Source of the DNA: Acidimicrobiales bacterium
Lineage (GTDB): Bacteria > Actinomycetota > Acidimicrobiia > Acidimicrobiales > DASWIA01
Length of the DNA stretch: 64,000 nt
Direction of reading: 5' to 3'
Assembly: GCA_036397895.1 (NCBI GenBank)
Contig: DASWIA010000047.1
Coordinates: forward strand, 20,237-84,236
Shown here piece by piece: positions 2,464 to 60,848 of the stretch; positions within the stretch are counted from its first letter, which is position 1, and the number at the start of each line of letters is the position of its first letter. The notes under the pieces are model-generated. The model did not search any database. It was not told the DNA's origin and saw only the letters and a list, made by a program, of their open reading frames with translations. The position numbers and the translations under genes were made by a program.

Positions 2464-3774
2464 TCAGGGGGCGGTGGAGGGGGGCAGGGGACGTCGTCGC
2501 ACCTTGGCGAAGAGTCTGTCGTGGCCACCCACCAGGTAGGAGAGCACGGCAAAGGTGGCGGCGCCGGCCACTACCACGAACCCGGCCCGCGCCGGCAGTG
2601 AGATGAGCACCGGCGGCACCGCGCCGATCACCCAGGCCATCTGAAAGCGCGTCTCGAAGCGGGCGAACGAGCGGCCCTGGTTGGCGTCGGGCGCGTCGCG
2701 CTGCACGATGGCGTCGAACGCCGTCTTACCGCTGGCCGCGGCCACCCCCACCGAGGCAGCGAGCAGCGCCACCCACAGCCGGCCGCCGTTGAAGGCAGCC
2801 AGGCCACCCATGACCGACACCAGCAACAGGGCACCGACGAGGATCCGCTCCTCGCGCAGGCTCCGACGCAGCGGAGCGGCCAGCGCGGCGCCGCCCATGC
2901 CGCCGAGGGCACTGAGGGCGATGACCACCCCGAACCACCACGCCGGGGCTCCGTCGGCGCGCAGGAAGAAGGCGACGAAGAAGGTGAGGAAGCCGACGAT
3001 GCCGCGCATCAGGGCCATGGCCGACGCCGCCAGCAGGACACCGGCTCCCCGCAGCTCGGCTCGCTCCAGCTCATCTGTGGGCTTGGCAGCCACCACCACC
3101 TTGGGGATCTTCAATGCGGCCACGGCCGCGGCGGCGAAGGCCACCATGGCGAGGGCCAAGATCCACGTGGCGCCGCCAAGCCGGAGGATGGCGATGCCGG
3201 GGATCCCGATGGCGAAGCCGACCACCCCGCTGGTCACGGTGAGCTTGGAGTTGGCCTCGACGAGCTCGTCGTGGCTTCGGACCACGGTGGGCACCAGGGC
3301 GGAGCGCGCCACAGCATGACTCTTGGCCAGCACCAGCGCCGCGAAGGCCTCGGGGTAGAGCAGGAGACCATCGAGGTCATCGATGAGCAGCAGGCAAACG
3401 ATCGAGCGACCGAAGGCGGCGAGGATGATCATGAGCCGCCGCCCACCGCGGGTGGCATCGATCCACGGCCCGAGCAGCGGCGACACCAACGCGAACGGCG
3501 CCATGGTCAACACCAGGTACAACAGCACCTTCTCGCGGGCCGCTTCGGGGGACACATCGAAGAACACCGAGTTGGCCAGGGCCAAGGTGACCAGCGTGTC
3601 GCCCATGATCGACAGCGCATGGGCCCGCATCAGGCGGGTGAACGCCGACAGGCCTCCCGCTCGGCGAGGAGAGCGGAGCGGCTGCCACCCGGCACCTGCC
3701 TCTGGACGCACCCGGTCATCGTAGGTGAGGCTGGAGGTCAAGAACCGGCCCCCGAACGACGAAACTGAGGCCAT
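2464..3774 (-). CDS. MFS transporter
   Basis: Hydrophobic helices run along the whole length, and there is an MFS motif-A-like loop (GPWIDATRGGRR). The first ATG is at 3774 (MASVSSF); the track start at 3780 is a TTG. The start is uncertain, with Met at LMRAHAL as an alternative. Confidence 0.75.
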   Translation of the reverse strand: MASVSSFGGRFLTSSLTYDDRVRPEAGAGWQPLRSPRRAGGLSAFTRLMRAHALSIMGDTLVTLALANSVFFDVSPEAAREKVLLYLVLTMAPFALVSPLLGPWIDATRGGRRLMIILAAFGRSIVCLLLIDDLDGLLLYPEAFAALVLAKSHAVARSALVPTVVRSHDELVEANSKLTVTSGVVGFAIGIPGIAILRLGGATWILALAMVAFAAAAVAALKIPKVVVAAKPTDELERAELRGAGVLLAASAMALMRGIVGFLTFFVAFFLRADGAPAWWFGVVIALSALGGMGGAALAAPLRRSLREERILVGALLLVSVMGGLAAFNGGRLWVALLAASVGVAAASGKTAFDAIVQRDAPDANQGRSFARFETRFQMAWVIGAVPPVLISLPARAGFVVVAGAATFAVLSYLVGGHDRLFAKVRRRPLPPSTAP

Positions 3775-4477
3775 GTCCAACCTCTCGGATCTTCTCGGTG
3801 GTGTCTACGGCGACGACGGCGATGACGACACCAACGACAACGCCAACGCCGGCGATGACACGCCGACCACCTCCACTCCCCCCGACGCCGGGGATCCCGA
3901 AGAAGCCGCCGTACCCCCCGACGCCCCCGAGCAACCCTCATCTGAGGCCTCGCCGTCCGACCCAGTCCCCGACCCCGGCGACTCAGGCCCCGGCGACTCA
4001 GCGACGTCACCGGCGAGCGACGGACCGGCGTGGGCCAGCGACGACCGCCTCGACGCCGCCTTCGACGAATGGGCTCCAGGATCGCTGCCCGGGCACACCC
4101 GCGACGAGCGCGAGGAGCTGACGTCGGACATCGAAGACGAACCACGGGCGGTAACCGGGATCGAAGCCGCGTCCGATGCGGCGGCCGCCGCCGGATCAGG
4201 CGTGTCGGGTGATCCCACAACCGCGCCGTCTCCCCCCGCGGTGGAGATCGGCGAAGCACTCACTATCGACCGTTCGGCTCCTGACGCTGGTGCCTCACCC
4301 GATGATGCGGTCACCGTGGCCGGCGTAGGGTCGCTTCCCTACGACGAGCCGTCCGAGCCGGCGGCGTCGACAGCCCCCGAGCCGACCGTGCCGGCGACGA
4401 AGTGGCAGCGATCCGACGACGACATCATCCCCCACGGCGGCGTGGGCGGGATCTTGGCCCGGCTGCTGGGTCGCTGA
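3773..4477 (+). CDS. Hypothetical acidic Asp/Pro/Ser-rich protein
   Basis: ORF 3725..4477, with ATG at 3773 (MSNLSDLLGG). G/C-rich third positions are sustained, the composition is low-complexity, and I recognise no motif. Its ATG overlaps the divergent MFS ATG within a CATG at 3772-3775, so at least one of the two starts may be wrong. Confidence 0.45.
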   Translation: MSNLSDLLGGVYGDDGDDDTNDNANAGDDTPTTSTPPDAGDPEEAAVPPDAPEQPSSEASPSDPVPDPGDSGPGDSATSPASDGPAWASDDRLDAAFDEWAPGSLPGHTRDEREELTSDIEDEPRAVTGIEAASDAAAAAGSGVSGDPTTAPSPPAVEIGEALTIDRSAPDAGASPDDAVTVAGVGSLPYDEPSEPAASTAPEPTVPATKWQRSDDDIIPHGGVGGILARLLGR

Positions 4478-4507
4478 ACCAGGTCGCTGAACCAGGTCGC
4501 TGAACCA
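4469..4507. repeat. Perfect 13-bp tandem repeat x3 (GGTCGCTGAACCA) starting in the last codons of CDS 3773..4477
   Basis: Copies lie at 4469-4481, 4482-4494 and 4495-4507. TGA occurs at 4475, 4488 and 4501, which puts one in each of the three frames. The first TGA is the real stop. Confidence 0.95.
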
Positions 4508-4508
4508 C

Positions 4509-5210
4509 TCAGGCGGACGGGACCTGGTACTTGTAGCCGAGGCCGCGGATCGTCACGATCCGCTCGGGATGTGACGGATCGCGTTCGACCTTGGCCCGAA
4601 GTCGCTTGATGTGCACGTCGAGCGTCTTGGTGTCGCCCACGTAGTCGCTGCCCCAGACGCGGTCGATGAGCGTGTCGCGGGTGAGGACCCGGCCGGCGTG
4701 GTCGAGGAGCAGTGTGAGCAGCTCGAACTCCTTGAGCGGCAGCTGCACTTCTTCACCGCGGATGGTGACCTCGTGTCGTTCGACGTCGACCCGGACGTCG
4801 CCGACGGCCACCACGTCGACCGACGGAGCGGCGCGCTCGGACGGAGCCCGCCGGAGGACCGCTCGCATGCGGGCCACCAGCTCGCGCAGGCGGTAGGGCT
4901 TGGTGACGTAGTCGTCGGCACCCACCTCGAGCCCCACCACGGTGTCGACCTCGGAGCCTCGGGCAGTGACCATGATGATGGGGACCTTCGACGACTTGCG
5001 GATCTCGCGGCACACGTCGATGCCGCTCACGTTGGGCAGCATGACATCGAGGAGAACGAGGTCGGGACGGAGGGCGTCGAACATGGTGAGGGCTTCGGAG
5101 CCGTCACGGGCGATGTGGATGCGGAACCCTTCCCGGCGGAGACCGATCTGGAGCGCCTCGAGGAAGCTCTCCTCGTCTTCGACCACCAAGACGCTGGGGC
5201 CGTCTGCCAT
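4509..5210 (-). CDS. OmpR-family response regulator (RegX3/PhoP-like, phosphate two-component system)
   Basis: The receiver domain shows VLVVEDEESF and LVLLDVMLP. The C-terminus is a winged helix (LTRDTLIDRVWG...TLDVHIKRLRAKV). It sits directly downstream of the histidine kinase and the pst-phoU genes. Confidence 0.9.
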   Translation of the reverse strand: MADGPSVLVVEDEESFLEALQIGLRREGFRIHIARDGSEALTMFDALRPDLVLLDVMLPNVSGIDVCREIRKSSKVPIIMVTARGSEVDTVVGLEVGADDYVTKPYRLRELVARMRAVLRRAPSERAAPSVDVVAVGDVRVDVERHEVTIRGEEVQLPLKEFELLTLLLDHAGRVLTRDTLIDRVWGSDYVGDTKTLDVHIKRLRAKVERDPSHPERIVTIRGLGYKYQVPSA

Positions 5211-15685: not shown

Positions 15686-15693
15686 CGGATTCC

Positions 15694-15730
15694 GGCGATC
15701 TGTTCAGGCGATCTGTTCAGGCGATCTGGA
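15694..15730. repeat. 13-bp tandem repeat, about 2.8 copies (GGCGATCTGTTCA), anchored on the stop of whiB-like CDS 15717..16004
   Basis: Copies lie at 15694-15706 and 15707-15719, with a partial copy at 15720-15730 inside the CDS. Minus-strand TGAs occur at 15719-15717 (the real stop) and 15706-15704. The next position downstream (15693-15691) reads GGA. Confidence 0.9.
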
Positions 15731-16004
15731 TGCTGGTGCCCTCTTCGGCGGTGCGACGCTCGACGGCGCGCTGGCGACGGATCTTGCGTCGCTCGCGCTC
15801 GCTCCGACCGCCCCAGATGCCGAACTTCTCGCCGTTGGTGATGGCGAAGTCAAGGCACTCGTCGCGCACCACGCACCCCTGGCAGACCGCCTTGGCCTCC
15901 CGGGTGCTGGCGCCGCGCTCGGGAAAGAAGAGATCAGGGTCGACGCCCAGGCAGTTGCTGTACTGCTGCCACGAAAGATCCTGTTCCGGCTTCGTCGTCC
16001 GCAT
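15717..16004 (-). CDS. WhiB family transcriptional regulator
   Basis: Begins MRTTKPEQDLSWQQYSNCLGVDPDLFFP and contains CQGCVVRDEC and GIWGG. ATG at 16004 is preceded by GGGAGG. Confidence 0.9.
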   Translation of the reverse strand: MRTTKPEQDLSWQQYSNCLGVDPDLFFPERGASTREAKAVCQGCVVRDECLDFAITNGEKFGIWGGRSERERRKIRRQRAVERRTAEEGTSIQIA

Positions 16005-16272
16005 CGTTGTGTGCCTCCCTCGCACTCACGACCACGGCAGGGCCCCCCACGACTCCTTCCGGACCGCACTGGTGTAATTACGTTGCTGTGATTCTGGCCC
16101 CTCCAGTAGCGATCCGCAAGAAGAATCTGGAAAACCCCTGGTCAACGCGCCAAAGAAATCCACCCGCTCGCGCCACCCGAGGGGTAGGAGTCACCCGGAT
16201 GAGGTGGTTGAACCAGCCGACAACCCGCAGCGCCGGCACCGTCAGGACTTCGGACGAAGCCGGCGAGCAACG

Positions 16273-25870: not shown

Positions 25871-25952
25871 GCCATCACACTACCATTCAGATCCCATTCT
25901 CGATCCATCATCCATCCATCTCACATCTATCTAACTTCCATCTCACGACTCG
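25871..25952 (-). promoter_or_regulatory. G-depleted, AT-richer tract with seven CCAT[CT] repeats abutting the vapB start
   Basis: The plus strand has only two G residues between 25872 and 25946. CCATC occurs at 25872, 25905, 25912, 25916 and 25938, and CCATT at 25883 and 25894. On the vapB strand these read as GATGG/AATGG. It is a candidate VapBC operator/promoter. Confidence 0.4.
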
Positions 25953-54924: not shown

Positions 54925-56459
54925 TCGATGGTGCCGGGCGGTTTCGACGTGATGTCGTACGCCACGCGGTTGACGCTGTCGACCTCGTTGATGATGCGAG
55001 TCGAGAGCTTGGCCAGCAGCTCGTGAGGCAGCCGGGCCCAGTCGGCGGTCATGGCATCGTCGGAGGTGACGGCGCGGATGACGACGGGGTACGCGTACGT
55101 CCGCTCGTCGCCCATCACCCCGACGGACCGGATGTCGGGGAGCACGGCGAACGCCTGCCAGATCTCCCGCTCGAGGCCGGCCGCCCGCAGCTCCTCACGG
55201 ACGATGGCGTCGGCTCGGCGCAGAACGGCAAGCTTGGTGGGTGTGACCTCACCGATGATGCGCACGGCCAGTCCTGGCCCCGGGAAGGGCTGGCGCCACA
55301 CGATCTCGGCCGGCAGCCCGAGCTCCTCACCCACTCGCCGGACCTCGTCCTTGAAGAGATCCCGCAGCGGTTCGCAGAGCTCGAACTCCATGTCGTCGGG
55401 GAGGCCACCGACGTTGTGGTGGCTTTTGATCTTTGCCGCGTCGGCGGTGCCGCTCTCGATCACGTCGGGGTAGAGAGTCCCTTGGACGAGGTAGGTGGCG
55501 TCGCCGGCGTCAGCCGCCGCCTGTTCGAAGGTGCGGATGAACAGCTCACCGATGATCTTCCGCTTCTCCTCGGGATCGGTGATGCCGGCCAGCCGCTCAG
55601 CGAATCGGTCGGCGGCGTCGACATGGATCAGCCGGATGCCCTGATGTCGCTCGAAGGTATCGACGACCTGTTCCGCCTCACCCTCTCGCAGCAGCCCGTG
55701 GTCGACGAAGACGCACGTGAGCTGATCACCGACAGCGCGGTGGACCAGCGCGGCGGCCACCGAAGAGTCGACGCCGCCGGAGAGGCCGCAGATGACATCG
55801 TCGGAGCCGACCTGGGCCCGGATGGCCTCCACCTGGCTGTCGATGATCGACGTCATGGTCCAGCTGGGGCGGGCGCCCGCCGCGTCGTACAGGAAGTGCT
55901 GGAGCACCTCTTGGCCGTGGGGAGTGTGCGCGACCTCGGGATGGAACTGCACACCGTAGAAGCCTCCGTCGGTGTCTTCGAAGGCCGCGACCGGGGCTTC
56001 GGCCGATGAGGCCGTGACCAGCGAACCCGGAGGCGGGGTGGTGATCGAATCGAAGTGGCTCATCCACACCGGCTGGCGCGACGGCAGGCCGTGGCCGAGA
56101 AGGACGCCGGGTTCGAGCACTTCGAGGTCGGTACCTCCGTACTCGCCGCGCCCGGTGCGCGACACCTCGCCACCGCGATCGCGGGCGATGAGCTGGGCGC
56201 CGTAACAGATGCCCAGGACCGGGATGTCGAGGTCGTAGATGGCCGGGTCGATGCCAGGGGCGCCGTCGACGTGCACTGACTTCGGTCCACCGCTGAAGAT
56301 CAGCGCCGTGGGTCCGAGCTCGGCCACCTCGGCGGCGCTGATCGTGCTCGGCACGATCTCGGAGTGGACGTGGGCCTCACGGACCCGGCGAGCGATGAGC
56401 TGGGCGTACTGGGCGCCGAAGTCGACGACGAGAACAGTGTCGAAGGATTCGGCGGTCAT
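54915..56459 (-). CDS. guaA: GMP synthase (glutamine-hydrolyzing)
   Basis: The GATase region has [10 protein letters not shown]. The PP-loop is [10 protein letters not shown], and the C-terminus is [11 protein letters not shown]. Confidence 0.97.
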
Positions 56460-56511
56460 CGGTGCTCAGTGAGTTCGGAGGGCAGTATCGAACGGCGGCC
56501 GGGGGGAAGGG

Positions 56512-57675
56512 TCAGGACCCCATCCCGATGCCTTGGCTGCGCTGGAGGCTCTTGCCTTCGGTCTGGAGCGCGGGCGCCACCATGACCTCGGCCTTCTGGA
56601 ACTCCTTCACCGACTCGTAACCACACGTGGACATCGAGGTGCGGAGGGCACCGAAGAGGTTGAGCCGACCGTCGTTCTCGTGGGCGGGTCCCACCAGGAT
56701 CTCTTCGAGCGTTCCCCGGACGCCCACCTCGACCCGTGCGCCGCGCGGCAGCGTGGGATGGAAGGTGGCCATTCCCCAGTGGTAGCCGCGGCCGGGGGCC
56801 TCAACGGCAGCGGCGAGGGGGGAGCCGATCATCACCGCGTCGGCACCGCAGGCGATGGCTTTGGCAACGTCGCCACCGGTGCCCATTCCGCCATCGGCGA
56901 TGACGTGGACGTAGACGCCGGTCTCGTCGAGGTGACGCATCCGTGCCCCGGCCGCGTCGGCGATGGCGGTGGCCTGGGGCACACCGATGCCGAGCACACC
57001 GCGGCTGGTGCAGGCGTGACCGGGACCGACGCCGACGAGGATGCCGACGGCACCGGTGCGCATGAGGTGCAGCGCAGCCTGATAGCTGGCACACCCACCG
57101 ACGATGCAGGGGATGTCGAGCTCTCGGATGAACTTCTTCAGGTTCAACGGCTCACGCGTCTTCGACACGTGCTCGGCCGAGACGACGGTGCCCTGGATGA
57201 CCAACAGGTCGAGCTCGGCGGCGATGATGGCGGGTGCGAAGTGCTCGGTGCGAGGCGGCGTGACCGACGCGCAGCTGACCACGCCTGCATCCTTGATCTC
57301 CCGGATGCGCCGGGTGACGAGATCGAGGTCGACGTCTCGGGTGTAGATGTCCTGCATCCGCAGTGTGGCCTTCTCGGGCGGAAGCTCGGCGATCTCGGCC
57401 AGGAGCGCGTCGGGGTCCTCGTAGCGGGTCCAGAGACCCTCGAGGTTCAGCACACCGACGCCACCGATGCGGCCGATCTCGATGGCCGTGGCCGGGCTGA
57501 TGACCCCGTCCATGGCCGCGCCCATCAACGGGAGATCGAAGGTGTAGGCGTCGATCTCCCAGGAGATGTCGACGTCCTCGGGATCTCGGGTGCGCCTGCT
57601 CGGCACGATGGCGATGTCGTCGAACCCATACGCCCGGCGACCAGACTTCCCGATGCCGATCTCGACCTCAGCCAC
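56512..57675 (-). CDS. GuaB3-family IMP dehydrogenase-related protein
   Basis: Begins MAEVEIGIGKSGRRAYGFDDIAIVPSRRTR and contains IADGGMGTGGDVAKA. At 387 aa with no CBS pair, it matches the GuaB3 type rather than GuaB2. Confidence 0.88.
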   Translation of the reverse strand: MAEVEIGIGKSGRRAYGFDDIAIVPSRRTRDPEDVDISWEIDAYTFDLPLMGAAMDGVISPATAIEIGRIGGVGVLNLEGLWTRYEDPDALLAEIAELPPEKATLRMQDIYTRDVDLDLVTRRIREIKDAGVVSCASVTPPRTEHFAPAIIAAELDLLVIQGTVVSAEHVSKTREPLNLKKFIRELDIPCIVGGCASYQAALHLMRTGAVGILVGVGPGHACTSRGVLGIGVPQATAIADAAGARMRHLDETGVYVHVIADGGMGTGGDVAKAIACGADAVMIGSPLAAAVEAPGRGYHWGMATFHPTLPRGARVEVGVRGTLEEILVGPAHENDGRLNLFGALRTSMSTCGYESVKEFQKAEVMVAPALQTEGKSLQRSQGIGMGS

Positions 57676-57775
57676 AGGGGGGAACCTCCGGAAACTCGAC
57701 CCCTAAAGGGCTGAGTGTAGCCATGGCCTCCGACCGATCACGAACCCCTCGGCATGCCGGTGTGGAGCCCTGGGC

Positions 57776-57812
57776 ACGGTCAGGACACACGGTCAGGACA
57801 CACGGTCAGGAC
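57776..57812. repeat. 13-bp tandem repeat, about 2.8 copies (ACGGTCAGGACAC), anchored on the stop of CDS 57806..58195
   Basis: Copies lie at 57776-57788 and 57789-57801, with a partial copy at 57802-57812. Minus-strand TGAs occur at 57808-57806 (the real stop), 57795-57793 and 57782-57780, giving one in each frame. Confidence 0.95.
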
Positions 57813-58195
57813 TTGAGGACGTTCAGGATCTGGCGGGCCACCGCCCCCGACATCTCGTAGCGCACCTGCTTGCGGGCATCGCGCACCTTGGTGAGGACGC
57901 TGCCACCGGTGAGCTGTTCGACCGAGTCCAAGCCGGCCACCACCGCTTCCTTGGAGATGTCCGTGGCCCGGTAGCCCATCGAGGTGAGACCCTTGATGAT
58001 GTCGTTCTGAGCGACAGGGCCGGGCGCGGCGGTGGCGAGCACGCGAAGTGCGTCCTTGGTGATCTCGGCGGCCTGTTCGACCGCCTCGACCGGCGTGAGA
58101 TGGCCTCCGGGCGCTCCCTCGACCGATGCCAGCCAGCGCCGAACCTTCAGCACGATCTCCTGGTGGGACTCGCCGTCGAACGTCAACGTGGCCAT
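57806..58195 (-). CDS. Hypothetical protein (129 aa)
   Basis: ATG at 58195 (MATLTFDGESHQEIVLKVRRWL). The coding bias is good, but I recognise no motif. Confidence 0.55.
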   Translation of the reverse strand: MATLTFDGESHQEIVLKVRRWLASVEGAPGGHLTPVEAVEQAAEITKDALRVLATAAPGPVAQNDIIKGLTSMGYRATDISKEAVVAGLDSVEQLTGGSVLTKVRDARKQVRYEMSGAVARQILNVLKS

Positions 58196-58215
58196 GGGTG
58201 CCCAGCGTAGGACGT

Positions 58216-58803
58216 TCAGATGCCGCGCTCGGGGTCGGTGCCGGTGATGCGCCCCAACAGGTCGACGAGCATCGCACCGGTGGCGCCCCACACCGTGTCG
58301 CCGACCAGCTCGAAGAAGTAGATGGGACGATCGACCGGACCGAGGCCCCATCGCTCCTCGCGGAAGTGCTGGGGATCCAACAGCTCGCTGAGCGGCACGT
58401 GCAGGACCCGCTCGACCTCCGCGGGGTTGGGCGTGAGCGCGGGCGGGGCGTCGAGGACGCCGACCACAGGAACGATGAAGCTGCCACTGCTGATGGTGGC
58501 GAGGTGATCGAGCTCGCCGATGACCTCTACCTTGTCAGGGGGCAACGCCACCTCCTCGTTGGCCTCCCGCAGCGCGGTGGCCACTGCATCCTCTCCCTCG
58601 TCCTGGCGGCCTCCGGGGAACGCCACCTCCCAGCGATGGCTGCGCAGGTGGCGGGACCTGCGGGTGAGCACGACGTGGGCCTCACCGCCGTCCTCGTAGA
58701 GAGCGGCCAGAACCGCGGAGGCCCGAGGGCGGAACCGCTCCACCAGCGCGGGACGAGGCGCCCGCCCCGAGGCGAAGGCGCGAACCACGTCGTCGATGCT
58801 CAC
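58216..58803 (-). CDS. NUDIX hydrolase, CoA pyrophosphatase type
   Basis: The Nudix box is GGRQDEGEDAVATALREANEEVAL, preceded by a NuCoA-like LTRRSRHLRSHRWEVAFPGG. I chose the GTG at 58803. An alternative GTG at 58923 would overlap the upstream small-ORF stop (GTGA). The remainder of the 429-aa track ORF is Arg-rich and overlaps groEL. Confidence 0.8.
   Translation of the reverse strand: MSIDDVVRAFASGRAPRPALVERFRPRASAVLAALYEDGGEAHVVLTRRSRHLRSHRWEVAFPGGRQDEGEDAVATALREANEEVALPPDKVEVIGELDHLATISSGSFIVPVVGVLDAPPALTPNPAEVERVLHVPLSELLDPQHFREERWGLGPVDRPIYFFELVGDTVWGATGAMLVDLLGRITGTDPERGI

Positions 58804-59177: not shown

Positions 59178-60848
<1,671 letters not shown>

Follow-up and report, generated by a model that had tools for sequence, protein, structure and literature searches.

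The nearest actinobacterial relatives in kind of the repeat described here are, by analogy, the MIRU/VNTR loci of Mycobacterium, which are likewise tandem repeats in intergenic spacers of an actinobacterium. MIRUs are reportedly located within operons, where they are said (in an account from 1997 attributed to Supply et al.) to overlap the stop codon of the upstream gene, and the first copy of our array, located at positions 57775-57812, similarly holds the native TGA of the gene upstream. The MIRU units, of 40-100 bp, have their sequence in common as a dispersed family, and their copy number differs from isolate to isolate (PMC2734929), whereas the array examined here has a 13-bp unit, with a local sequence of its own at each locus, and a copy number that is constant in five assemblies.

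Another comparison is offered by the TAACTGA heptamer repeats in Beggiatoaceae, Cyanobacteria and Bacteroidetes, which occur at 169 sites, in most cases only a few nucleotides ahead of a start codon, and are suspected to be a post-transcriptional regulator (PMC4679880). Like the array, these are short intergenic direct repeats with a period that is not a multiple of three (non-3n) and with stop codons in the unit, and they stop all three reading frames. However, a single fixed unit is used in the heptamer repeats, in contrast to locus-specific copies of the gene's own end, and they are adjacent to start codons, whereas our array is located about 100 nt upstream of the guaB3 start.

The array also touches on the hidden or fail-safe stops of the ambush hypothesis, in which additional stops make frameshifted or read-through translation less costly, a concern that is larger in GC-rich genomes since off-frame stops are rare there. 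In the accessible parts of two publications, such stops are treated as statistical tendencies of single codons inside or after genes (PMC5909447, PMC6764699), and the accessible part of the second, a bacterial survey, reports no evidence for fail-safe 3' stops (PMC6764699). Here, in contrast, the stops are created by a discrete repeat, and our own survey of 879 gene ends showed no general enrichment. Finally, the slippage-prone simple sequence repeats of contingency loci share with the array a presumed origin by strand slippage on head-to-tail copies, but they are located in coding regions or promoters and switch expression by frequent changes in copy number, whereas the array is placed after a stop codon, leaves the protein unchanged and shows no copy-number variation.

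The array at the end of gene 57806-58195, upstream of guaB3

The window, by which we mean the whole analysed stretch of 64,000 nucleotides from an Acidimicrobiales bacterium, was searched with Tandem Repeats Finder, which reported a repeat at 57775-57812 with a period of 13, 2.9 copies and 100% matches. An independent exact scan was concordant. The array and its surroundings contain the following features:

57775..57812, minus strand: whole tandem array, 13-bp unit GTCCTGACCGTGT (in gene orientation), 2.9 copies, 100% identical
57800..57812, minus strand: copy 1, in which gene 57806-58195 ends with its final Ser codon (TCC) and native stop TGA (57808-57806)
57787..57799, minus strand: copy 2, whose TGA (57795-57793) is in frame +1 with respect to the gene
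57775..57786, minus strand: copy 3 (12 of 13 nt), with a TGA at 57782-57780 in the +2 frame
57806..58195, minus strand: gene whose end is repeated, for a 129-aa conserved hypothetical protein of Acidimicrobiales
57714..57719, minus strand: -10-like box TACACT, followed by CCCTTT, about 55 nt downstream of the array
56512..57675, minus strand: gene for a GuaB3-family IMP dehydrogenase-related protein (TIGR01304, 548 bits), with a GTG start at 57675 and GGAGG at 57689-57685

Read along the minus strand, the end of the gene is ...CTC AAG TCC TGA CCGTGTG TCCTGACCGTGTG TCCTGACCGTG CCC. The TGAs are located at +0, +13 and +26 and occupy all three frames because 13 is not a multiple of 3, which provides a stop in each frame within tens of nucleotides after gene 57806-58195. 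One of the alternative frames is open for 721 nt across the whole gene (ORF 57780..58487) and is closed by the TGA in copy 3. The initial annotation had given the three TGAs at exactly these positions, 13 nt apart and one per frame; it had also placed the array at 57776-57812, of which the right end is correct whereas the true start is one base further to the left, at 57775. With its head-to-tail copies of one unit the array is a simple tandem repeat of the minisatellite or VNTR type, and its edges are blunt and without any microhomology remainder, as are those of a second array at 4469-4507. The G+C content of the window is 68.4%, for which we used a per-base match probability of 0.284, and the number of perfect runs of such length expected by chance at a given period in 64 kb is about 1e-9. 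Just six perfect tandem repeats with at least 2 copies were identified in the window by the exact scan, and three of these six had a period of 13 and about 3 copies.

CDS 57806-58195 is a real gene, called identically in public assemblies and terminating at the first TGA. No Pfam or NCBIfam family matched the 129-aa protein, for which we found 761 homologues of about 130 aa; nearly all of these come from Acidimicrobiales or from actinobacterial metagenome bins without classification, and NCBI lists the exact sequence under an Acidimicrobiales MAG. The gene is preceded by a NUDIX gene, a small ORF, groEL and groES, and is separated by a spacer of 130 nt from guaB3, after which comes guaA. The match to TIGR01304 and the length of the spacer agree with the earlier placement of the array in a 130-nt region upstream of a guaB3-like gene on the same strand.

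Of 79 orthologous spacers upstream of guaB3, 33 contain TAG[ACG]CT in the sense orientation and none contains it on the antisense strand. The box reads TAGCCT, TAGACT or TAGGCT in the relatives, and its counterpart in the window is TACACT, which, to judge from the sequence, probably drives the transcription of guaB3. Since the -10-like box is conserved and located outside the array, guaB3 probably has its own promoter beyond the array.

The suggestion that the array could insulate guaB3 from the upstream gene found no support in the structural and motif analyses. Compared to dinucleotide shuffles, the array at 57775-57812 with its flanks had fold z-scores of -0.1 and +0.6 and showed no hairpin, and the folds on either strand at all three loci in the window that carry such arrays, and those at an array in another genome, L026, were not unusual (z between -1.6 and +1.3). 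A consensus scan of 57400-58400 identified no terminator-like or promoter-like site. The array itself contains neither a GC-rich hairpin followed by a U tract, as in intrinsic terminators, nor the -35 and -10 hexamers of a sigma-70-type promoter. A search against Rfam was empty for the whole window at the gathering threshold, and for 57500-58000 even at E<=1. Nor is the array C-rich, G-poor and unstructured at the RNA level, as rut sites are; the unit contains 4 C and 4 G and its structure is like that of shuffled sequence. The -10-like box, as noted, is located about 55 nt downstream of the array.

Related arrays in the window and in other genomes

Two further arrays with a period of 13 are present in the window:

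4469..4507, plus strand: sister array 1, GGTCGCTGAACCA in 3.0 copies, with the TGA of gene 3725-4477 in copy 1
15690..15728, minus strand: sister array 2, CAGATCGCCTGAA in 3.0 copies, with the TGA of the WhiB gene 15717-16025 in copy 1

Sister array 1 begins 5 nt before the TGA of gene 3725-4477, which encodes a 250-aa acidic low-complexity protein, and finishes 1 nt short of the convergent stop of a response-regulator gene, the end of which is at 4509. Sister array 2 begins 9 nt before the TGA of the WhiB gene, and after it comes the stop of a formiminotransferase-like gene in convergent orientation. The true stop is contained in copy 1 in all three arrays of the window, and the three units (GGTCGCTGAACCA, CAGATCGCCTGAA and GTCCTGACCGTGT) are unrelated in sequence. 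The initial annotation had treated the three loci as one set, anchored on a stop codon and with TGA in all frames. Both sister arrays are indeed anchored on the TGA of a gene, but a TGA in every frame was found only at 4469-4507, since copy 3 of the WhiB array has GGA in place of TGA and only two frames are closed. At both of the convergent loci the two stops are separated by 31 nt, which would be 5 nt without the two extra copies. A minimum spacer between convergent genes was considered as an explanation and rejected; such spacers range freely in these genomes from overlapping to hundreds of nucleotides, with 0-10 nt being common, which argues against any minimum-spacer rule. No decayed older arrays were found at other gene ends in the window.

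To the four further contigs with the exact 129-aa protein, which come from four other samples (two from ENA, ERZ27256989 and ERZ27256991, and two from JGI, 3300033417 and 3300054115), the window is 99.9-99.0% identical, and all four have three copies at the counterpart of 57775-57812. There was no variation in copy number among the five assemblies, which diverge by up to about 1%, and the sole difference within the array was one SNP, T-to-C, inside copy 2. The sister arrays, too, show no change wherever an assembly covers them, and the GGA in the WhiB array is present in all three that cover this locus. The finding of three copies in four independent assemblies indicates that the array is neither an assembly artefact nor hypervariable, and a hypervariable locus was ruled out by the constant copy number. 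The lone SNP in copy 2 of one assembly indicates that no homogenisation of the copies is under way. At the orthologous stop no repeat was found in any of 80 loci from other Acidimicrobiales (55-65% protein identity), from which it follows that the array was gained in this lineage; an ancient conserved element was ruled out on the same grounds. The databases searched contained no relative whose orthologue of the 129-aa protein has an intermediate identity of 70-95%. We found no further 13-bp arrays in an additional 20 kb of same-species flanking sequence, 10 kb on each side (L088, L090). The density of arrays in this species is about 7 times that in other Acidimicrobiales, with 3 observed versus about 0.45 expected (Poisson p ~0.01).

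In a survey of 1.13 Mb of other Acidimicrobiales loci, we identified a handful of analogous arrays:

L026, 15022-15065: 13 bp in 3.4 copies at the end of a dienelactone-hydrolase gene, with the third TGA as the in-frame stop
L002: 10 bp in 3 copies
L042, 18997-19028: 14 bp, anchored on the stop of guaA
L029, 7376-7419: 14 bp, beginning 20 nt after the stop of guaA
L034 and L074: 17-nt repeats where guaA ends
L047: duplication of 53 nt, also where guaA ends
L058, 6006-6020: TGAGCTGAGCTGA between groES and groEL, where the groES end TGAGCTGAGCTGAC is directly followed by the ATG of groEL

Two of the repeat copies in L026 are translated as a short C-terminal extension (...RL TASPDRES*), while orthologues end 1-7 residues after RL; its unit and the window unit at 57775-57812 share GTCCTGACCG. 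In L058, three TGAs with a period of 5 nt cover the three frames in an intercistronic spacer of 14 nt. The third TGA has been lost in L074, where it reads TGG. The arrays in L042 (GTGA-N10-GTGA-N10-GTGA), L002 and L058 look like the products of single microhomology-mediated slippage events, for example from GTGA-N10-GTGA. No perfect arrays of 2.0-2.25 copies with a period of at least 13 were found in 1.2 Mb of Acidimicrobiales DNA, and the arrays that are present have 2.3-3.4 copies.

The end of guaA (...GTIEWE*) carries stop-containing duplications with differing units and periods of 14, 14, 17, 17 and 53 nt in a group of freshwater Acidimicrobiia bins (L042, L029, L034, L074 and L047). Copies 2 and 3 of the L042 array match each other exactly but have diverged from the coding copy. 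Taken together, the guaA-end duplications and the copies in L042 suggest repeated rounds of duplication at one site.

A scan of metagenomes for three TCCTGACC cores spaced 10-16 nt apart matched at least 120 contigs. In at least 16 cases the array was located where a long ORF ends whose codon composition is of the coding type, and the contigs mostly had a G+C content of 64-74%. Among the matches listed, the gene stop was TGA number 1 in 12 of the 13 non-3n arrays with a coding ORF, as compared to the one third expected if the arrays were independent of the gene (binomial estimate ~2e-5). This strong bias for the first copy indicates that the arrays duplicate the gene's own stop-containing end, and argues against pre-existing arrays that genes have run into. 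The eight ORFs that were scanned belong to unrelated families, namely ZnuA, DUF2017, DUF559, PdxT/SNO, DUF5753, acyl-CoA synthetase, oligopeptide ABC ATPase and ABC-2 permease. In six of these eight (ZnuA, DUF2017, DUF559, DUF5753, AMP-binding_C and oligo_HPY) the Pfam match extends to the end of the profile, which indicates that these six stops are native. The periods of the 16 gene-end arrays among the matches listed were 11 (1), 13 (5), 14 (7) and 15 (3), with none at 12 or 16, which places 15 of the 16 at 13-15 nt, and the perfect part of the metagenome arrays usually comprised 2.8-3.2 copies among the matches listed.

A sequence-specific repeat family was considered and rejected, since the matches listed for the TCCTGACC core have unrelated variable parts and are located at unrelated genes, which suggests that the shared core is merely a common Ser-stop context. 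The array at 57775-57812 is a member of a set of short, stop-codon-spanning arrays, mostly with units of 13-15 nt in about three copies, which are found at unrelated gene ends in high-GC, apparently actinobacterial genomes. We found no description of stop-anchored triple repeats of 13-15 nt in the full-text literature, which suggests that their recurrence at gene ends in high-GC bacteria is an undescribed pattern.

Other repeat structures were observed among the matches. In L288 (6479-6554), two adjacent 14-bp arrays are located after one gene end, CAGTCCTGACCAGC in 3.2 copies and then CAGGCCCGGCCAGG in 2.4 copies, the second of which looks as if it had been derived from the first by divergence, with loss of the TGA. 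Among the metagenome matches listed (L211-L330), many of those with a period of 14 in contigs of lower G+C content are long arrays of the heptamer CCTGACY. Such heptamer arrays are also present in viral contigs (L091-L210); they are not located at gene ends and seem to represent a different class of repeats. The viral contigs with a CCTGAC core contained mostly coding repeats with 3n periods and heptamers.

Origin and possible function of the arrays

With moderate confidence, we interpret the array at 57775-57812 as a lineage-specific tandem triplication, fixed in the species, of a 13-bp segment spanning the native TGA, which was produced by slippage or unequal exchange and is neutral or nearly so. 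Replication slippage or unequal exchange would have added two copies, or 26 nt, directly after the original segment. Copy 1 retains the reading frame and the stop, and the protein is unchanged. The additional copies would thereby have entered the untranslated spacer 3' of the gene, ahead of the probable guaB3 promoter, and would disrupt nothing there. The anchoring on stop codons is accounted for by purifying selection. A duplication of 13 bp inside a CDS would shift the frame and be lost, while a duplication that contains the stop would leave the protein intact and be tolerated. At the two sister loci, removal of the extra copies would leave just 5 nt between the convergent genes, so that a 13-bp duplication could be tolerated there only if it included a stop. 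The copied TGAs land in the other two frames, and no reading frame stays open for more than 26 nt beyond the end of the gene.

Rather less probable, in our judgement, is an array kept by selection as a three-frame translational stop, at which frame-shifted ribosomes are released within 26 nt. The shift could occur inside the gene or at a slow UGA, and the stop would prevent run-on through the spacer and into the guaB3 promoter and leader or, at the convergent loci, antisense to the neighbouring gene. Such selection is consistent with the TGA in each frame at both 57775-57812 and 4469-4507, with the closure of the 721-nt open frame by TGA number 3, and with the occurrence elsewhere of at least three TGAs in three frames at periods of 5 (L058), 10 (L002), 13 (L026) and 14 nt (L029 and L042). 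It would also account for the scarcity of two-copy arrays and the stability of the copy number among strains, and, in the unbiased set, for the two gene-end arrays with 3n periods having only about 2 copies while the non-3n arrays have at least three stops. In L026, the gene ends at TGA number 3, as if the safety net had been used in evolution, and some of the carriers are typically highly expressed genes (groES, guaA and whiB). However, several observations speak against a selected stop. The third TGA of the WhiB array is mutated in three of three assemblies, which leaves frame +2 open for 167 nt, whereas an array collapsed to a single copy would close this frame at +26. The stops are thus not conserved where the element recurs, as seen from the GGA at 15690-15728 and the TGG in L074. 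All frames were closed within 30 nt at 1.5% of 879 Acidimicrobiales gene ends, versus 0.6% in a reverse-complement control; about 98.5% of the genes do without such closure, and there was no clear general enrichment of off-frame stops after the 879 gene ends. If the array at 57775-57812 were removed, the next off-frame stops would be located at +77 and +112 nt instead of +26 and +13, and the off-frame translation saved was computed to be only about 50-100 nt. Moreover, gene-end arrays with a period of 15 occur at a roughly neutral proportion (3 of 16 among the matches listed), and the accessible part of a published survey offers no evidence for selected fail-safe additional stops in bacteria (PMC6764699). 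Of the all-frame-stop reading in the initial annotation, what stands is the anchoring on a real stop and the TGA in three frames at 57775-57812, but not its standing as a functional device. The three-frame stop is probably a by-product and not the reason for the array, since the third TGA has decayed at WhiB and in L074, gene ends show no enrichment, the saving is small and period-15 (3n) arrays are found at gene ends too.

A signal at the RNA or DNA level, whether for the loading of Rho, for an oligomeric binder that recognises units of about 13 nt, or as a spacer or insulator for guaB3 or the convergent genes, would fit the location of all three window arrays at gene ends and the spacing of exactly 31 nt between the stops at both convergent loci. 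The RNA site size of E. coli Rho is roughly 13 nt per monomer, which the 13-15-nt mode of the gene-end arrays resembles. Yet the units are wholly different among the loci, so that no sequence-specific binder fits, and the unit with its 4 C and 4 G is unlike the C-rich, G-poor rut sites. The structure is neither unusual nor unusually absent, there is no terminator-like site, convergent spacers range freely with 0-10 nt being common, and the -10-like box of guaB3 is located outside the array. We consider such a signal improbable. Still more improbable, in our view, are the footprints of staggered cuts, that is, target-site duplications from repeated insertion and excision or the repair of breaks with 13-nt overhangs. 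These would explain the blunt and exact edges without microhomology and the 13-bp length shared by all three arrays, but three copies require two identical events at each of three loci, and the ORF lists and gene tables show no element remnants, inverted repeats or transposase gene beside the arrays. Excision in bacteria normally leaves no two clean copies of a target duplication, and the gene-end periods in other genomes range from 5 to 53 nt. The source of the window is a metagenome-assembled genome, which would be the reason to suspect a chance match or an assembly artefact, but with an expectation of about 1e-9 and the same array in four independent ENA and JGI assemblies, including a strain diverged by about 1%, the probability of either is negligible.

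The favoured tandem triplication does not account for every feature of the data. Plain stepwise neutral slippage fits poorly with three arrays in one window that all have a period of 13, about 3.0 copies and blunt edges, and with the scarcity of two-copy arrays, which would be expected as the more stable precursors. The constant copy number, the clustering of periods at 13-15 nt and the about 7-fold higher density of arrays are further misfits. They would be compatible with stabilising selection on three copies, in line with the all-frame-stop idea of the initial annotation, or with a dedicated mutational mechanism that has a characteristic length of about 14 nt. We therefore tentatively entertain, as a possibility to which we give less than even weight, that high-GC Actinobacteria widely carry stop-anchored arrays of about 13-15 nt and about 3 copies as a distinct feature, hitherto undescribed, which is not neutral and reflects either selected three-frame stops or mutation at gene ends by a specific process whose characteristic length is about 14 nt.

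If the three-frame stop is a by-product, the array is a small curiosity in which purifying selection has confined frame-breaking duplications to stop codons, the one harmless place for them in a compact genome, and annotators should take such arrays as a sign of neither a frameshift nor an assembly error. If a mutational mechanism is responsible, the sharp length of 13-15 nt and the preference for three copies would indicate that replication or repair behaves at gene ends in a way not recognised before. To our knowledge, the organisms that carry such arrays lack MutS/MutL mismatch repair. If the arrays are selected, they would represent the first discrete and recurrent device that terminates all three frames at natural bacterial gene ends, and would challenge the no-evidence finding on fail-safe additional stops in bacteria, as given in the accessible part of the published survey.

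Other repeats and motifs near guaB3, guaA and elsewhere in the window

In the region of the guaB3 box (57701-57719 of the window, minus strand), the box is followed by a CTTTC motif in one subset of relatives and by GCGGCAACGA in another. In L008 and L009, the box reads TAGTGT and is located just 7-8 nt before the GTG start of guaB3, which suggests that the guaB3 mRNA is leaderless there.

Downstream of guaA, at 56447-56461 of the window, an in-frame TGA is present at +15 after the stop, and many genomes have a second stop 12-18 nt after the first (orthologous positions in L021, L030, L043, L048, L061, L063, L069 and L071). Several of these other genomes then share (g)gggggcggagcg.aggtcacgtcg downstream of guaA, which could represent either a conserved element or the terminal part of an adjacent gene.

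The 9/18-bp repeat CCCATGCCA at 59187-59231 of the window is an ordinary coding repeat that corresponds to the glycine- and methionine-rich tail of the GroEL C-terminus. A divergent intergenic region that is richer in AT, at 25880-25950, contains imperfect direct repeats of ATCCATC / ATCCATCTCAC, for which Tandem Repeats Finder gave a period of 11 with 4 copies and 79% matches. These repeats are located upstream of a MazE-like/PIN toxin-antitoxin pair, of which they may be the operator.
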